Assembly: GCA_035553815.1 (NCBI GenBank)
Contig: DATMJP010000003.1
Location: 1-29,432, forward strand
DNA from: Minisyncoccota bacterium
Lineage (GTDB): Bacteria; Patescibacteriota; Minisyncoccia; Phycocordibacterales; Phycocordibacteraceae
Direction of reading: 5' to 3'
DNA length: 29,432 nucleotides
Translations under genes and position numbers: made by a program
The notes under the pieces: model-generated
The model's database searches: none
Told to the model about the DNA's origin: nothing
What the model saw: the letters and a program-made list of their open reading frames with translations, nothing else
Shown here: positions 22,844 through 29,432 of the stretch, piece after piece
Numbering within the stretch: position 1 is the stretch's first letter
How the letters are laid out: each line of letters opens with the position of its first letter

Positions 22844-23320
22844 TTACGCATGGGGATAGCGACTGGCGAGTGCCGCGATGCCTACCGCAATCGCGTCAAG
22901 TTCATCATCAAGCCTTGCAGCTGAAGGGAGGGTGATGAGGCGCGGAATCATTGCCATCACAGCCTTTTTCTCAGCTGCGCCGTACCCAGTCACTGCGAGT
23001 TTTACGTGCTGCGGGGAGATCTCGCGGACTGGAAGGTTGCGCCTGCCAGCCTCAGCAAGTACAGCGCCACGTGCTTCGGCAACACCAATCGCTGTTGTTT
23101 TATTCGTGCCAAAGAAGAGCGATTCAATCGCAAGGAGATCCGGCGCGTAGGTATCTAGAGCTTCTACGAGCGCATCGGCTATAACAGCAAGCCGCTGGCT
23201 CGCCTCGCCTTTAGGGGGCGTGACACATGTGCTCCATACATAGGAAGGTTTACTAGGGTCGCCCTCGACCACCGCGATGCCCATGCGGTCGTAGCCAGGA
23301 TCAATCGCGAGTATTCTCAT
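22844..23320 (-). CDS. ruvC: Holliday junction resolvase RuvC
   Basis: ILAIDPG, LAIESLFF, EARG, P..VKLAVTGYG.AEK, DDELDAIAVG. ATG 23320 overlaps the end of yebC. Confidence 0.95.
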   Translation of the reverse strand: MRILAIDPGYDRMGIAVVEGDPSKPSYVWSTCVTPPKGEASQRLAVIADALVEALDTYAPDLLAIESLFFGTNKTTAIGVAEARGAVLAEAGRRNLPVREISPQHVKLAVTGYGAAEKKAVMAMIPRLITLPSAARLDDELDAIAVGIAALASRYPHA

Positions 23321-23858
23321 AGCCGCGCACGTTGGTGTACGTTTCCTGCACATCATCGTGCTCATCAAGCAGAGTCAAAATAGTGCCGAGGCGCTCCTCA
23401 TCGTTGCCTGTGATGTCGACCAGAGGTTCGTTCGGTGTGAATGAACCATCAGGAGACTTCGTGAAAGCCCAGAGCGCTGAGCCAGGAGCGGCTAGTTCAT
23501 ACCCATTCTTGGTGAGCATGTGCTTAATTTCAGCAGTGGTACGGTTACGGCTGTCGGTGAGCGCGTTCACAATGCATGCTGAACCGCCCGGCCCGTAAAA
23601 TTCATACGTAACCTGTTCAAGCTCACCGGCTTCTTTGGAAGTGCCTTTTGTAATTGCGCGCTCAATATTATCTTTCGGCATGTTCACCTCTTTGGCGCGC
23701 TGGATAGCTGCCTGAAGCGATGGGGCAGAGAGGTTGCCTGCTGCTTTCTTTGATTCAAGGGTGATAACACGCGCGAGACGTCCGAATGCGCGGCTGCGCG
23801 CCGCGTCCGTCACGGCCTTCTGCCTCTTAATCTGTGCCCATTTGCTGTGTCCTGCCAT
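23301..23858 (-). CDS. yebC: YebC/PmpR family protein (short, 185 aa)
   Basis: MAGHSKWAQIKRQK, NMPKDNIERAI, YE.YGPGG, TDSRNRT, LDEHDDVQE.YTN. Confidence 0.93.
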   Translation of the reverse strand: MAGHSKWAQIKRQKAVTDAARSRAFGRLARVITLESKKAAGNLSAPSLQAAIQRAKEVNMPKDNIERAITKGTSKEAGELEQVTYEFYGPGGSACIVNALTDSRNRTTAEIKHMLTKNGYELAAPGSALWAFTKSPDGSFTPNEPLVDITGNDEERLGTILTLLDEHDDVQETYTNVRGYENTRD

Positions 23859-23859
23859 A

Positions 23860-24852
23860 TCAATTATTTATATACTCTTTTCCTTTATTTGTGAGCATGC
23901 GTCCGCGGCTCGAGCGCTCGATGAATCCAAGGCGTAGTAGATACGGCTCGTACATGTTTTCAACCGTATCCGGATCCTCATGGAGCGCTGAAGCGAGCGC
24001 ACGGATGCCGGCCGGTCCGCCCTTGAACGCATCACGCAGCGTCTCAAGGTAGCGGCGATCATCCTTGGTGAGACCGAGCGTGTCGATGCCAAAGAGCTGG
24101 CACGCTTCATCACACACCTGCGGCGAAAGATCGCGTTCGTGCACTTCAGAGAAATCGCGTACACGCTTTAGTAGAGCGTTTGCAATACGCGGAGTCGCGC
24201 GGCTGCGCGAAGCAATGCGCTCGATAACTTCAGGAGATGCAGAAAGACCAAGCACATCGGCAGAGCGCGCAATGATGGAACGCAAGTCCGCATCGCTATA
24301 GAAATCGAGCTGGTACACGCCGCCTCCAAAGCGTGAGCGAAGCGGGGCAGAGAGTTGCGATACGTGTGTGGTAGCGCCGACCAGCGTGAACGGGGGAAGC
24401 GCGAGTTCAACGGTGCGTGCAGACGGTCCTTTGCCAAGCACAATGTCGAGGCTGCCTTGCTCAAGCGCAGGGTAGAGAAGCTCTTCGATCTTTGAAGAGA
24501 GCTGATGAATTTCATCAATGAAAAGCACCGAGCCTGGTTCAAGGTTGGTGAGAATTGCCGCCAAGTCGCCAGCGCGCTCGATCGCAACACCTGAAGTGCT
24601 CTTGAGTGGCGCCTCAAGGGATGCGGCAACAAGGTGAGCGAGTGTGGTCTTGCCGACGCCGGGAGGGCCGTAGAACAAAATATGTTCTGGCATGGTGCCG
24701 CGCTTCTTTGCGGCTTCGATAACGATGTTGACGTTGTCTTTTACGTGGCTCTGGCCTACGTATTCGGACCAAAGGGTAGGGCGGAGCGTCGCATCAAGCA
24801 TGCGATCCCGCTCCTTTACAAATCCCGTGCTTTCCGTAGAACTACTTGACAT
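23860..24852 (-). CDS. ruvB: Holliday junction branch-migration ATPase RuvB
   Basis: LRPTLWSEYVGQ, GPPGVGKTTLA, LFIDEIH, FTLVGATT, LRSRFG, SRATPRIANALLKRVRD, YEPYLLRLGFIERSSRGR. Confidence 0.96.
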   Translation of the reverse strand: MSSSSTESTGFVKERDRMLDATLRPTLWSEYVGQSHVKDNVNIVIEAAKKRGTMPEHILFYGPPGVGKTTLAHLVAASLEAPLKSTSGVAIERAGDLAAILTNLEPGSVLFIDEIHQLSSKIEELLYPALEQGSLDIVLGKGPSARTVELALPPFTLVGATTHVSQLSAPLRSRFGGGVYQLDFYSDADLRSIIARSADVLGLSASPEVIERIASRSRATPRIANALLKRVRDFSEVHERDLSPQVCDEACQLFGIDTLGLTKDDRRYLETLRDAFKGGPAGIRALASALHEDPDTVENMYEPYLLRLGFIERSSRGRMLTNKGKEYINN

Positions 24853-24881
24853 AAAAAGGGGGTGGTGCTACTATTATAGCA
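24846..24881. promoter_or_regulatory. Bidirectional promoter: ncRNA candidate (+) and ruvB (-)
   Basis: Plus: TTGACA (24846-51), 17 nt, TG-C-TACTAT (24869-74). Minus: TG-C-TATAAT (24878-73). The core GTGCTA-CTATTA-TAGCAC is symmetric. Confidence 0.75.
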
Positions 24882-25124
24882 CATGAGGGACGGCCTCGTG
24901 AGGACCTTTCGAAGGCCCTTTTTCATTTACATCCTACATAGAACCCTCTAGGCAAGGCTTGACGGCTTCGGGCACTTCCCCAAGGATCTTCTGGTACCAC
25001 GCTTGTACGTGGTGCGCTGGGAGTCCCCTCAGGCGATTTGTTCACCCGTCCTCTTTTGGACGGACTGCCTGGAGGGTTGTGTGTGGGATAGCAAAAGCCC
25101 CGGGATAGCTCCCGGGGCTTTTGT
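24881..25124 (+). ncRNA. Structured non-coding RNA candidate (6S RNA-like long irregular hairpin)
   Basis: Consensus promoter upstream and terminator downstream. 24931-24954 pairs with 25066-25089 over 24 positions (one G-G mismatch, three G-U). The inner stem 24984-25001/25008-25026 also has G-U pairs, and there is a side hairpin CCGTCC-TCTTTT-GGACGG. The wobbles are valid only on the + strand. The identity is not confirmed. Confidence 0.6.
25092..25123. terminator. Bidirectional intrinsic terminator (pilB / ncRNA)
   Basis: Perfect 14-bp stem CAAAAGCCCCGGGA-TAGC-TCCCGGGGCTTTTG, just past the pilB stop at 25126. Confidence 0.9.
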
Positions 25125-25125
25125 G

Positions 25126-26796
25126 TTATTCGCGCGGAATATCCACCACCTTGAATACTTCTTCGAGGGAGGTGAAGCCGGATATGGCTTTAAGCACGCC
25201 ATCCTGCGCCATGGTGAGATAGCCCTGGCGGCGCGTTGCCTTCTCAATTTCAGCGGCAGACGGCCCCATCTTAAGAAGCTCTGCGAGCTCCTCGTCCATA
25301 AAGATTGCTTCATGCACGCCAAGGCGTCCTTTATAGCCGGTGTCGGTCTCCGTTTCGTGTGCGCTGTATACGTAGTCGAATGACTCAGGCATCTGGGACT
25401 TATCCTCAAGCGATGCAAAGATGCGCTCCATGGCACGCTTCTCCTCGTCTGTCGTCTGGCGCCTGATACGCGTTTCTGGATTGAGGACGCGCACCAATCG
25501 CTGAGCCATCGCAACCGTCACGGCAGACGGAATGGTCTTAGGATCAACGCCAAGATCCATGAGGCGAGGGAACGCACCCGCAGCGTTATTGGTGTGGAGT
25601 GTTGAGAACACAAAGTGTCCGGTGAGTGCGGCCTGGATAGCCGTTTCTGCAACTTCTGAGTCGCGGATCTCGCCGACCATGATGACGTCCGGGTCTTGGC
25701 GCAGTACCGAACGCAAGCCGGAGGCGAATGTGTACTCGCGGCCGTCCGTTTGCGTCTGGACAATGCCAGGGAGATGGTACTCGATAGGGTCCTCGATAGT
25801 GATGATCTTCACATCTGGCGTATGCACGGCACGCAGGAATGAATAGAGAGTCGTCGTCTTACCAGAGCCAGTCGGACCTGTCGTAAGTAGCATGCCGTTA
25901 GGGCGGTGGATCTCAGTTTCAAGGCGCTTATAGAGCTTCTCGTTAAGTCCCATCTCAGCGAATGTCCTTTGAATACCTTCAGGATCAAGGATACGCAGTA
26001 CGATATTCTCACCGTAGTTACCTGGAATAAGCGAGGTGCGGATTTCGATCTCTTTATCGCCAACACCAATACTGAAGCGGCCATCCTGTGCGCGGTTTGC
26101 AATATTAAGCTTCAGTCCTGAGAGGAGCTTGATGCGCGAGGTAAGGAGCTTATATGCGTGCGCATCAAAGAAGAAGACGTCGGTGAGCTGGCCATCAAGA
26201 CGCAGGCGCAGGCGAATAGCATCTTCCTCCGGCTCAATGTGAATGTCAGACGCGCGCAGGGTGAGTGCGCTTGCAAGGAGGCCTTCAAGGAGGCGCGAAG
26301 TCTGTGCGCGATGCTTTGGATCAACTGCGTCGGTAAGGAAGAGTCGTAGCGCGGGCAAATTGTTCAGCTCAGCTGAGAGCTTCTTGAGTTCTTCGCTTTC
26401 AATATCAAAGACGCCCTGCTTGCTCTCTGCTGCAAGCGAGAGATCTGCATAGCGCTCAAATGCTTTTTCGAGCGCGCGCTTGGAAGCTAGCTGCACCTGA
26501 ATAATCAGGCCGCGCAGTTCAAGGTCATGCAGTACCGCCTTCAGTACTTCGTTCTCAGGATTGTGTACCGCAACAAGCGTGTGCTTGCCGGTCTTATCAA
26601 ATACAATCGCTTCCGCTTCGCGCGCCTGCGCCTCAGGTAGAAGGCGCAGCGCGTCCATATTAATAGGGTAGAGGGATAGATCTATGTACGGAATGCCGTA
26701 CTTATCAGCGAGTATGCGCGTGAGGTCTTCCTCCTCATGCTCATATATAGATTTAAGTTTCTCGTTTTCGGCGTCCGTATCGAAATGGCTGGGCAT
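25126..26796 (-). CDS. GspE/PilB-family type IV pilus assembly ATPase (556 aa)
   Basis: ASDIHIEP, QDGRF, Walker A TGPTGSGKTTTL, Asp box TIEDPIEY, Walker B DPDVIMVGEIRD, His box TGHFVFSTLHTN, TGYKGR. The true start is ATG 26796; the ORF-track extension to 27336 is antisense to tsaE. Confidence 0.92.
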   Translation of the reverse strand: MPSHFDTDAENEKLKSIYEHEEEDLTRILADKYGIPYIDLSLYPINMDALRLLPEAQAREAEAIVFDKTGKHTLVAVHNPENEVLKAVLHDLELRGLIIQVQLASKRALEKAFERYADLSLAAESKQGVFDIESEELKKLSAELNNLPALRLFLTDAVDPKHRAQTSRLLEGLLASALTLRASDIHIEPEEDAIRLRLRLDGQLTDVFFFDAHAYKLLTSRIKLLSGLKLNIANRAQDGRFSIGVGDKEIEIRTSLIPGNYGENIVLRILDPEGIQRTFAEMGLNEKLYKRLETEIHRPNGMLLTTGPTGSGKTTTLYSFLRAVHTPDVKIITIEDPIEYHLPGIVQTQTDGREYTFASGLRSVLRQDPDVIMVGEIRDSEVAETAIQAALTGHFVFSTLHTNNAAGAFPRLMDLGVDPKTIPSAVTVAMAQRLVRVLNPETRIRRQTTDEEKRAMERIFASLEDKSQMPESFDYVYSAHETETDTGYKGRLGVHEAIFMDEELAELLKMGPSAAEIEKATRRQGYLTMAQDGVLKAISGFTSLEEVFKVVDIPRE

Positions 26797-26802
26797 GGAG
26801 CT

Positions 26803-26856
26803 ATGATAGCGCGCTCGGAAGCAGCCTGCCATGCTTTTCTTTGTAATTGGTACAAT
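26803..26856. promoter_or_regulatory. Divergent -10 elements of pilB (-) and tsaE (+)
   Basis: Minus TATCAT (26808-26803), 6 nt, ATG 26796. Plus TG-G-TACAAT (26848-56), 6 nt, ATG 26863. Confidence 0.6.
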
Positions 26857-26862
26857 AGGGGT

Positions 26863-27297
26863 ATGGAAAAGGCACTCCCTAGTCTTGAAGCGCTCGAAGC
26901 AGAAGCAAAGACCTTCACGAGAGGGCTTGTACCAAAGGCATCTGGCGCCACGCTCCTTACCCTCTCTGGGGAGCTCGGAGCCGGGAAAACCGCCTTTACC
27001 CAGGCGCTTGCCCGCACGCTGGGAGTTACGGACGCCATAACGAGCCCCACCTTCGTGCTTATGAAGATCTACCAGCTTCCAGAGGAGGCCGCATTCAGGC
27101 GCCTTGTGCATATCGACGCATACCGGCTTCAAGGAAGGGAGGACCTTGCACCGCTCGGATTTGATGAAGTGCTTGAAGACAAGGACAACCTCGTGGTCGT
27201 TGAGTGGCCTCAACAGGTTGACCTTATGCAAAGCGACTACGCGCTCACCCTCATGGTTAATCCTGACGAGAGCCGCACCATAACCTATGGCACCTAA
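26863..27297 (+). CDS. tsaE: tRNA t6A biosynthesis ATPase TsaE
   Basis: LSGELGAGKTAF, ITSPTF, LVHIDAYRL, VVVEWP. The true start is ATG 26863. Confidence 0.95.
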   Translation: MEKALPSLEALEAEAKTFTRGLVPKASGATLLTLSGELGAGKTAFTQALARTLGVTDAITSPTFVLMKIYQLPEEAAFRRLVHIDAYRLQGREDLAPLGFDEVLEDKDNLVVVEWPQQVDLMQSDYALTLMVNPDESRTITYGT

Positions 27298-29432
27298 ACG
27301 AAAGCGGCTCGTACTTCTTGATGCGCACGCGATCATCCATCGCGCGTACCACGCACTTCCAGATTTCCAGGGACCGGATGGTCAGCCAACCGGCGCCCTC
27401 TACGGACTTTCAGCAATGCTGCTTCGCATCATGCAGGATCTCGCGCCAGACTATATCGCTGCTTGTTACGACCTACCGAAACCAACCGTACGCCATGAGG
27501 CGTACGCAGGCTACAAAGCAACGCGCGTAAAGACCGATGATGCGCTTACTACTCAGATCAACACGTCGCGCAAAGTCTTTCAGGCATTTTGCATACCTAT
27601 ATATGAGCGAGAGGGGTTCGAGGCAGACGACATCCTCGGGACGATCGTGGAAGAGCTGAAGGATACGCCGGAGCTTGAGGTGGTGATCGCATCAGGCGAT
27701 ATGGACACGCTTCAGTTGGTCGACGAGAACCGGGTCAAGGTGTATACCCTCAAGAAAGGGCTCAACGACACTATCATGTACGACGAGAAGGCCGTGCGTG
27801 AACGCTTTTTGTTTGATCCGGCACTCATTCCTGACTACAAGGGATTGCGTGGCGACCCCTCAGACAACATCATCGGTGTTCCCGGCATCGGCGAGAAGAC
27901 GGCAACCGAACTCATCACCACCTTTGGCTCAATAGAGGACATATACGCAGCGCTTCATAAGGACGAAGAGAAATTCCTTGCCAAAGGCGTGAAGCCGCGC
28001 ATCATGAATCTCCTCAAAGAGCATGAAGAAGATGCAATCTTTTCAAAGATGCTTGCCACTATACGTACTGATGCGCCGATTGCATTCTCGCTTAAAGACA
28101 CAGCGCGCGAAGATAAAGTCTCACTTCCGAAACTGCTCGCCCTCTTTGATGAGCTGGGATTCCGCTCACTGCGCGGCAGGGCACGCAGCGTACTTTTGAG
28201 CGATGCGGAAGAGGGCGAGGAATCGGAAGAGGAGGAGCGTGTGGAAGAGGATATAGATCCAACCAAACTCTCGGAAGCGAAAGTTATGCTGTGGCTTCTG
28301 ATGTCAGATTTCACTAACCCCACCACTGAGGATGTGCTCGCATACGCAAAGAAGCAAACGTTTGCAGAAGCGTATGACGAGCTGTCCCGTCGCATTAAAG
28401 AAACCGGAAGGCTGCAGGAGGTGTTTGAAACTATTGAGCAGCCGCTCATTCCTGTGCTGCGTCGGTCAGAAGCATGCGGCGTGCTCGTTGATAAAAAAGC
28501 ACTCATCGCACTACGCGACCGCTACCGTGCGGAACTCAGTGAGATAGAAGCACGCATATACAAAGCAGCAGGGAAGGAGTTCAACATCAGCTCGCCTAAA
28601 CAGTTAGGCGACGTGCTCTTTGATGATTTGGAGCTCCGCGTTAAGGGGCAGAAGAAAACTTCGACCGGGCAACGCTCGACCAAGGAATCAGAGCTTGAGA
28701 AGTTGCGCGAGCTCCATCCGATCATTAGCGACATCCTTGAATACCGTCAGATACAAAAGCTCCTTTCAACCTATGTCGAAAGCATCCCGCCATTGCTTGA
28801 TGGTGATGGACGCCTGCATACGGAGTTCATACAGACCGGCACCACAACTGGCCGCATGGCGAGCCAGAATCCTAACCTGCAGAATATTCCGATCCGCACA
28901 GAGCGCGGGCGCTTGATTCGAAACGCATTCATTGCACCTAAGGGCTCAACACTTCTCGCGCTTGATTATTCGCAGATTGAATTGCGCCTCGCGGCGATTC
29001 TCTCTGGCGACGAGAAGCTCATTGAGATTTTCAAGTCAGGCCGCGACGTGCACCAGGAAGTCGCTGCTGCCGTGTTTGGTGTGCCAAGCACTGAAGTAGA
29101 TCGAGAGATGCGCAGGCGCGCAAAGATTATCAACTTCGGTATTCTCTACGGCATGGGCGTAAATGCACTGCGCACACAGCTCGGCACCACTACCGGAGAT
29201 GCCCATCGTTTCTACGACGACTACTTCGCCACGTTCACGCGCCTCGCTGAATACTTGGAAGAGACGAAGGGCTTTGCACGCAAGAACGGCTACACAGAAA
29301 CGCTGTTCGGCCGCCGCCGTCAGTTCCCAGAAATGCGCTCGCCGCTACCGTACGTGCGCGCACAGGCGGAACGCATGGCGATCAATGCGCCGATCCAAGG
29401 TACGCAGGCAGACATCATCAAGCGTGCGATGG
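27287..29432 (+). CDS. polA: DNA polymerase I, 3' end outside window
   Basis: Manual translation from ATG 27287: LVLLDAHAIIHRAYHALP, GFEADD, SGDMD, GDPSDNIIGVPGIGEKTA (5'-3' exonuclease); FNISSPKQL, TTTGRMASQNPNLQNIP, DYSQIELR, AKIINFGILYG (family A polymerase). Not in the ORF track because it runs off the edge. Confidence 0.96.
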   Translation, partial: MAPKRKRLVLLDAHAIIHRAYHALPDFQGPDGQPTGALYGLSAMLLRIMQDLAPDYIAACYDLPKPTVRHEAYAGYKATRVKTDDALTTQINTSRKVFQAFCIPIYEREGFEADDILGTIVEELKDTPELEVVIASGDMDTLQLVDENRVKVYTLKKGLNDTIMYDEKAVRERFLFDPALIPDYKGLRGDPSDNIIGVPGIGEKTATELITTFGSIEDIYAALHKDEEKFLAKGVKPRIMNLLKEHEEDAIFSKMLATIRTDAPIAFSLKDTAREDKVSLPKLLALFDELGFRSLRGRARSVLLSDAEEGEESEEEERVEEDIDPTKLSEAKVMLWLLMSDFTNPTTEDVLAYAKKQTFAEAYDELSRRIKETGRLQEVFETIEQPLIPVLRRSEACGVLVDKKALIALRDRYRAELSEIEARIYKAAGKEFNISSPKQLGDVLFDDLELRVKGQKKTSTGQRSTKESELEKLRELHPIISDILEYRQIQKLLSTYVESIPPLLDGDGRLHTEFIQTGTTTGRMASQNPNLQNIPIRTERGRLIRNAFIAPKGSTLLALDYSQIELRLAAILSGDEKLIEIFKSGRDVHQEVAAAVFGVPSTEVDREMRRRAKIINFGILYGMGVNALRTQLGTTTGDAHRFYDDYFATFTRLAEYLEETKGFARKNGYTETLFGRRRQFPEMRSPLPYVRAQAERMAINAPIQGTQADIIKRAM

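Follow-up and report, generated by a model that had tools for sequence, protein, structure and literature searches.

What is encoded in the 273-bp gap between ruvB and pilB in a genome of the Patescibacteria (candidate phyla radiation, CPR; Paceibacteria/Parcubacteria type)? The question arises from a 29,432-nucleotide stretch of contig DATMJP010000003.1, here called the window, in which the original prediction had placed an unannotated, rod-like non-coding RNA (ncRNA) on the + strand of this gap, either a divergent 6S RNA or a new RNA family. The existence of such an ncRNA is borne out by its fold, by covariation among homologues, by a conserved promoter and by a terminator. Positions 24931-25089 (+) are the body of a stand-alone structured ncRNA gene of ~160 nucleotides (nt). 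The RNA family matches no described RNA family and was found in no source searched. We favor the view that it represents such an unfound family whose members act in trans and bind protein, a reading to which we assign a probability of about 0.5.

The 159-nt + strand RNA folds with a minimum free energy (MFE) of -85.3 kcal/mol (z = -7.19), a value matched by none of 200 shuffled sequences. The complement of the same interval reaches -63.3 kcal/mol (z = -4.06). The family covariance model described below scores the + strand of the window at 153.4 bits and the - strand at 27.6 bits. Since the + strand folds better than its complement, the G-U asymmetry that had been read as a signature of selection on RNA is real.

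Homologues were sought in the 80 closest RuvB loci of a species-level genome collection, each taken as a 13-kb locus. These loci belong to metagenome-assembled genomes labelled Paceibacteria, Kaiserbacteria, Zambryskibacteria, Yonathbacteria, Nomurabacteria, Parcubacteria and similar, and their RuvB proteins are 51-83% identical to that of the window. Searches by blastn and nhmmer with the window RNA recovered a homologue in 44 loci, in every case 100-300 bp upstream of ruvB and on the opposite strand. A covariance model was then built from a MAFFT alignment of 43 homologues (alignment A2); the E-values of this home-made model are rough. It located the RNA in 78 of the 80 loci, always directly upstream of ruvB and on the opposite strand, with true-strand scores running from 166 to 27.5 bits and scores of 22-39 bits for the reverse strands of the same sites. 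The RNA was not found by the model in the two other loci (L044 and L063) even with the filters off; L063 has only 279 nt upstream of ruvB. Two of the homologues have unusual apical arms. The apical hairpin of L019 (2543-2718) is 16 nt longer, and L010 (5719-5925) carries an insertion with a run of N in the 3' half of the arm, probably an assembly or masking artefact; L010 was excluded from both alignments used below.

Each locus holds a single true-strand match (914 kb of loci), as does the 29-kb window, in which a repeat search revealed no second copy of the element. Phage and plasmid collections gave no blastn match to the RNA. RNA identity correlates with RuvB identity (Spearman 0.78, n = 67), and mean RNA identity to the window copy is 72% where RuvB identity is at least 70% and 52% where it is below 60%. 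Because RNA identity tracks RuvB identity at a fixed site, the RNA is inherited vertically and is not mobile. It is a core feature of Paceibacteria, passed on by vertical descent. The orthologues beside ruvB that the original prediction had proposed to look for are thus present, and they covary.

These data bear directly on the view that the locus is no RNA gene and is instead a mobile palindrome such as a miniature inverted-repeat transposable element (MITE), an element acting at the DNA level or a gene for a small protein. The long terminal inverted repeats would fit a mobile palindrome, but the element occurs once per locus and once in the window, stays at one site across 78 loci, has diverged in parallel with RuvB, lacks phage or plasmid matches and shows the G-U asymmetry of an RNA. 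Neither dispersed copies nor any sign of mobility was seen in the loci and the window searched. Coding fares no better. The only open reading frames (ORFs) that overlap the RNA are 49 amino acids (TTG start) and 40 amino acids (GTG start) long, and no reading frame is conserved. Homologue lengths (135-176 nt, median 159) are evenly spread over the classes modulo 3 (24/31/22 among 77 homologues), which argues against a small protein gene and agrees with the earlier judgement that no credible protein is encoded; indels of 1-2 nt also occur in the most conserved part of the RNA. All non-RNA readings are close to refuted.

Covariation was assessed on two alignments. A2, the 43 close sequences aligned by plain MAFFT without structure, is the cleaner test, whereas A4, which holds 68 sequences including 25 from a distant, AT-rich group, was fitted to the model and leans towards the model's structure. 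RNAalifold predicted 50 pairs on A2, 30 of them with compensatory changes. In A2 95.2% of the cells are paired, compared with 86.4% after shuffling and at most 49% when the partners are slid, and none of 500 shuffles reached any of the five measures. In A4 the paired fraction is 94.9% against 78.5% for shuffled data and at most 51% for slid controls, compensatory changes are found at 40 of the 50 pairs, and again none of 500 shuffles attained the observed values.

In the consensus fold, P1, P2', P3', P4' and P5 stack coaxially into a long rod, with a small hairpin branching from each strand at its center (Table 1). Three elements drawn earlier by hand folding are supported by covariation: the stem that closes the RNA, the 6-bp hairpin of the 3' side and the apical stem with its CTTGTA cap. 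The ends of P1 covary freely, reading AUCC/GGAU, UUCC/GGAA, AUCG/CGAU or AAAAAG/CUUUUU. Within P3', the C48-G105 pair is replaced by U-A in 4 of 43 sequences of A2 (with none broken) and in 12 of 68 of A4, and the A52.C100 mismatch becomes G.U in L028 and most distant sequences, a classic isosteric exchange. When the branches were folded singly, 65 of the 68 sequences formed a 5' hairpin of at least 3 bp; a hairpin of 4 bp or more formed on the 3' side in 64 and at the apex in 61. In the distant group Pa is replaced by longer hairpins of unrelated sequence (4-8 bp). Pa is absent from L055, L067 and L073, where the 5' side measures only 5-8 nt, and P6 is absent from L012, L021, L018 and L030, where the 3' side measures only 1, 1, 2 and 6 nt; no sequence lacks both. 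Each side branch is therefore dispensable and the rod is the universal core. The linkers of the central junction are 2, 2, 2 and 3 nt long in the window copy.

The center was thus drawn differently in the original prediction, which left a large open region of 29 and 39 nt with a possible helix between GCTTGA and TCAGGC. That helix (GCUUGA, nt 27-32, with UCAGGC, nt 99-104) is compatible with the 43 close sequences (99% paired); it shows no compensatory change and cannot form in the distant group, where the 5' partner is gone in all 25 homologues. The UCAGGC strand pairs instead with the AGG-containing strand CCCCAAGG, with covariation, and this pairing is kept in the distant group. Given that pairing and the loss of the alternative 5' partner, the center is not an open 29/39-nt region; each strand forms a hairpin there and the junction is closed. 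A GGCUUC/GGGAGU-type helix of the MFE fold was also rejected, being only 64.6% paired with no compensatory changes. UCAGGC (25029-25034) is complementary to three segments, namely its P3' partner, GCUUGA (24957-24962) and GCCUGG (25067-25072, the 3' top of P1). The RNA is built from related C-Y-N-R-G words, and alternative conformations are conceivable.

Table 1. Positions of the RNA elements, the flanking signals and the neighboring genes. RNA numbering converts to window position as 24930 + n; A2 and A4 are the alignments of 43 and 68 sequences.
Feature	RNA nt	Window position	Strand	Remarks
P1, closing stem, 23 bp	1-23 / 137-159	24931-24953 / 25067-25089	+	Compensatory changes at 18/20 pairs on A4
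Junction AA	24-25	24954-24955	+	96-97% conserved, 68 sequences
Pa, 5' branch hairpin (GGCU-UGAC-GGCU)	26-37	24956-24967	+	Invariant in close group
P2'	40-44 / 109-113	24970-24974 / 25039-25043	+	Both-side changes at 5/5 pairs (A4), 4/5 (A2)
P3', 5' strand CCCCAAGG	48-55 / 97-105	24978-24985 / 25027-25035	+	Tandem C.A / A.C mismatches
P4', 5' strand CUUCUGGU	58-65 / 86-93	24988-24995 / 25016-25023	+	Invariant tandem U.G/G.U (CUGG/CUGG); covariation
P5, apical hairpin, 6 bp, loop CUUGUA	66-83	24996-25013	+	Sequence and length variable
P6, 3' branch hairpin (CCGUCC-UCUUUU-GGACGG)	116-133	25046-25063	+	6/6 pairs compensatory
-35 hexamer TTGACA		24846-24851	+	Overlaps first ATG of long ruvB ORF (other strand)
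Extended -10, TG-c-TACTAT		24866-24874 (TACTAT 24869-24874)	+	17-nt spacer to -35
Facing extended -10, TG-c-TATAAT		24873-24881	-	Read from sequence; overlaps the -10 of the RNA by 2 bp
5' leader		24883-24930	+	Hairpin 24883-24926, then U-rich run, terminator-like; from fold of 24880-25128
Intrinsic terminator		25091-25124		15-bp stem, A run before, U run after; one base short of pilB stop
yidC; dnaA and dnaN; class A penicillin-binding protein (gene order left of locus)			-; +; -	Pfam
ruvC		22844-23368	-	Pfam
yebC		23301-23858	-	Pfam
ruvB		23860-24852	-	Pfam
pilB		25126-27336	-	Pfam; stop codon 25126-25128
polA		27287-29431	+	Pfam

Conservation of at least 94% among the 68 sequences is found at the A10-U150 pair, at the top of P1 (U17, C18, A20, G22, C23 / G137, U140, G142, A143, G144), at A24 and A25, in P3' (A53, G54, G55 / C97, C98, U99) and in P4' (U62, G63, G64 / C87, U88, G89). 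The invariant positions thus lie mostly inside helices, as CUCUARGC/GCYUNGAG plus AA, an A-U pair 13 bp lower, AGGA/UCCU beside the tandem C.A / A.C (or G.U) mismatches, and CUGG/CUGG with its tandem G.U, and few unpaired nucleotides are conserved family-wide. The top of the 5' strand of P1, CUCUAGGC, is nearly invariant together with A10, and so is the AGGA/UCCU part of P3'. U19 is 88% conserved with A, G or U as its partner; being fixed despite a variable partner, it indicates that pairing is not the sole constraint on this strand. Sequences of the distant group carry almost one and the same word in the 3' strand of the P1 top (GCUUAGAG) and in that of P3' (CCUUAGAA), running in the same direction along the rod; two related binding sites or an internal duplication could be responsible.

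Conservation inside helices resembles a protein footprint, and for this reason we take the RNA to be a protein partner. The RNA would be abundant and act in trans. Its helix-embedded, strand-specific conservation and its fixed mismatches would mark the contact of a protein along one face of the rod, and the RNA would serve as a subunit or a sequestering ligand of a conserved protein. Most genomes have no gene downstream of the RNA on its strand. The leading named candidate for the partner is the RNA polymerase (RNAP) holoenzyme, which would make the RNA a non-canonical 6S analogue and is weighed as a separate alternative below. Somewhat more tentatively, we propose a housekeeping ribonucleoprotein of the CPR, in which a highly expressed rod RNA with a closed four-way center has a partner other than RNAP, Ffh, RnpA or SmpB.

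Several points weigh against a trans-acting, protein-binding RNA. Transcription, the RNA ends and abundance are all inferred from sequence. So is protein binding, and tertiary contacts, alternative pairings or a ligand could give the same pattern. The three possible partners of UCAGGC make a conformational switch possible. The whole GGCUUGACGGCUU segment is invariant in the close group, for which protein binding along the rod does not account. The fixed adjacency to ruvB and the bidirectional promoter of 34 loci (see below) could point to a locus-linked role. The search for extra copies covered the 13-kb loci.

Some of the same features would suit a ligand-sensing RNA or a ribozyme acting in trans or on itself. 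The 16-nt AAGGCUUGACGGCUUC shows almost no variation among the 43 close sequences (44 counting the window copy), UCAGGC has alternative pairings and the center is a multi-helix junction. In distant sequences, however, the invariant segment has either been lost or given way to hairpins of unrelated sequence, few unpaired nucleotides are conserved across the family, and 60 of 75 loci have no downstream gene to regulate. We regard a ligand-sensing or catalytic role as highly improbable.

The sequence of the promoter had been called correctly, including the 17-nt spacing and the TG, and transcription is inferred from spacing to start at ~24881-24883. It is one of three 10/12 sites in the window and the sole one with TG. 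Promoter-like sites in the window do not exceed shuffled sequence in total number, and the consensus match alone is therefore weak evidence. Its significance comes from conservation. Of 78 loci, 71 have TTGAC[AT]-N16-18-TAnnnT upstream of the RNA and in its orientation; TG accompanies every one of these, and 70 have a perfect TTGACA. The -35 hexamer also touches the neighboring gene, whose start is ambiguous. The long ruvB ORF begins at 24852, within this hexamer, without a Shine-Dalgarno sequence; an alternative in-frame ATG lies at 24801-24799 with AAGGAG (24816-24811) 9 nt ahead, and the RuvB of most relatives aligns only from query residues 9-19 on.

The facing -10 probably belongs to a ruvB promoter. 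A facing TAnnnT with the 2-bp overlap occurs in 34 of 78 loci, 33 from the close group and one distant (L069), and in close-group relatives the two -10s form the palindrome TGCTAG-N4-CTAGCA. Judged by their sequence, the overlapping -10s of these 34 loci constitute a conserved, putative bidirectional promoter for the RNA and ruvB. This arrangement, together with the constant placement between pilB and ruvB (78 of 80 loci), a convergent PilB in 60 of 75 and a terminator common to the RNA and pilB in the window, would be expected if the role of the RNA were tied to its locus, so that its transcription or the divergent 5' overlap tunes ruvB, or the rod insulates ruvB from pilB, with no function in trans. 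Insulation or interference, however, could work without conserved internal loops and tandem mismatches, and without bases that stay invariant 100 nt away from the promoter. In addition, 33 of 34 distant loci have no facing -10 and all keep the RNA, and the strand asymmetry and whole-rod covariation point to selection on the RNA itself. A purely locus-linked role is accordingly quite improbable.

The distance from the -10 to P1 varies from 8 to 102 nt (median 45), so that the leader is variable and probably either trimmed or irrelevant; we consider it probably removed or dispensable. A T-rich run lies directly 5' of P1 in 35 of 78 loci and is preceded by a hairpin in 14 of these, and in loci without the leader hairpin the T-rich run is at most ~10 nt from the start. 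Attenuation, nucleotide-sensitive initiation or a processing signal are possible roles for the leader hairpin and T-rich run. At the other end, the strong terminator of the original prediction is present as a 15-bp stem followed by a U run (Table 1), and it can serve both the RNA (+) and pilB (-). In 24 of 77 relatives, a U-rich run directly 3' of P1 takes the place of a separate hairpin, indicating that P1 itself can be the terminator there. Downstream of the RNA, 60 of 75 assessable loci have a PilB homologue encoded on the opposite strand, which argues against a leader or riboswitch. In the other 15, the longest downstream ORF is on the RNA's strand in 10, and four of these overlap the RNA itself.

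Several neighboring genes have features of their own. The YebC/TACO1 ORF is short (185 amino acids), its Pfam match spans only 55 of the 160 positions of the second and third domains, and it overlaps the ruvC ORF by 68 nt; the gene could be truncated or fused. No ruvA lies between ruvC and ruvB by Pfam. The pilB ORF of the window encodes 736 amino acids, compared with ~555-570 in the neighbors of most relatives, and it shares its first 50 nt with the beginning of the oppositely oriented polA. Either pilB may in truth start more internally, or the window protein may carry an additional N-terminal part.

Known families were searched with the 4227 models of Rfam 15, which include RNase P, transfer-messenger RNA (tmRNA), Y RNA/YrlA and raiA. 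No Rfam 15 family reached its gathering score anywhere in the 29,432 bases. At E <= 10, the window region and two homologues (L052 and L024) matched no 6S, signal recognition particle (SRP), RNase P, tmRNA or Y RNA model, the only matches being terminator or hairpin look-alikes, of at most 20.8 bits for the window region. ARAGORN reported no tRNA or tmRNA in the window. An informal comparison by hand with known motifs led us to reject SRP domain IV, conserved RNase P regions, Y RNA, retron ncRNA, CsrA-type GGA loops and Shine-Dalgarno mimicry. A full-text literature search, with most subscription journals outside its coverage, returned no description of this RNA, of a 6S RNA from the CPR or of an ncRNA between pilB and ruvB. 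The suggestion of a new RNA family is upheld by these searches.

CPR bacteria/Patescibacteria make up a large share of bacterial diversity, and they have tiny genomes and almost no characterized regulatory RNAs. For the cultivated Saccharibacterium TM7x, a 2022 preprint indicates that validated small RNAs were lacking (10.1101/2022.03.25.485537). Retention at one locus, a near-perfect promoter and presence in 78 of 80 species-level genomes mark the RNA as a housekeeping component and not a quirk of one lineage. If it is 6S-like, it would fill the place of the missing RNAP-regulating RNA in these organisms with a new type of structure; control of RNAP by an architecture unlike the open-promoter mimicry of 6S would, if true, be equally novel. 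If it is not, it would belong to a ribonucleoprotein that textbooks do not list beside SRP, RNase P, tmRNA and 6S. In either case, the covariance model lets annotators label an RNA gene left blank by current pipelines.

The known RNA that it most calls to mind in outline is 6S RNA, and one alternative in the original prediction was that it might be a divergent 6S. In a published account, 6S RNA is a ~200-nt rod with a relatively unstructured central bubble between closing and apical stems, in which the 3' strand carries a -10-like element and the 5' strand the template start, and B. subtilis 6S-1 has a small hairpin on the 3' side of the bubble (PMC8876501). Like 6S (RF00013; E. coli 6S and B. 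subtilis 6S-1), the RNA described here comes from a stand-alone gene with a strong housekeeping promoter, is near-universal in its clade and forms a rod of ~150-200 nt. Its size (135-176 nt) and its two arms, P1 and P2'-P5, both with covariation, agree with the 6S plan of a closing stem made from the two ends and an apical stem interrupted by small loops, and P6 recalls the 3'-side hairpin of 6S-1.

It could then be the functional 6S of these bacteria, a promoter mimic that binds the sigma-70 holoenzyme and is released by product RNAs templated from AA/Pa into the 5' strand of P1. Both the AA and the 5' side of the P1 top are conserved beyond pairing needs, as a template would be, and Pa is weak in the close group (~-3 kcal/mol). 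The lack of a 6S paper on the CPR in the literature searched leaves room for such an RNA, and Ms1 exemplifies an RNAP-binding RNA that escapes 6S models (PMC9130861).

The center speaks against this proposal. Where 6S has a relatively unstructured bubble, here the junction is closed and both strands fold into hairpins: the 5' strand forms one in 65 of 68 sequences, of up to -8.7 kcal/mol in the distant group, and the 3' strand does so in 64 of 68. In three species (L012, L021 and L018) the 3' strand of the center is just 1, 1 and 2 nt long, so that a -10-like single strand would exist there only if P2', a covarying helix, were to melt. The invariant AA beside P1 would template U, a poor initiating nucleotide. 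Conservation lies in the helices, not in a bubble, and no similarity to 6S covariance models was detected in the Rfam searches above. Since both the unstructured bubble and model similarity fail, we do not file the RNA as 6S, and we judge a 6S function in this sense unlikely. A trans-acting RNA with a protein partner remains our preferred reading.

Ms1 offers a precedent at the level of the clade. This actinobacterial RNA is reported to have a 6S-related structure, to bind core RNAP and to have been found by synteny, so that a clade without a recognizable 6S possesses a structurally related but distinct RNAP-binding RNA (PMC9130861). The present RNA differs from Ms1 in clade and in gene neighborhood, the two having been compared only through Rfam scans.

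The bacterial SRP (4.5S) RNA is a long hairpin-like rod with conserved elements near and far from its tip and a 5' leader that is removed. The RNA in the ruvB-pilB gap likewise is a hairpin-like rod with conserved elements near and far from the tip, and it has a 5' leader. This resemblance, which would extend to processing of the leader, and the cloverleaf-like four-way junction raise the idea of a known housekeeping RNA in disguise, whether SRP, RNase P, tmRNA or Y RNA. To our knowledge, the SRP tetraloop and its flanking loops are universally conserved. In contrast, the apical loop of the present RNA is variable, it lacks the domain IV loops, it bears two side hairpins and it has no Rfam SRP match. 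It is also far too small for RNase P or tmRNA, and the Rfam families concerned gave no match at E <= 10. A disguised RNA of this set is thus very improbable indeed.

The RNA is also comparable in kind to the orphan conserved structured ncRNAs, such as the raiA motif, OLE, ROOL and GOLLD, for which no function was known when they were first found. Like them, it is defined only by covariation and conservation and is restricted to a clade. Unlike them, it is smaller and is a core gene with a fixed neighborhood, in CPR bacteria.

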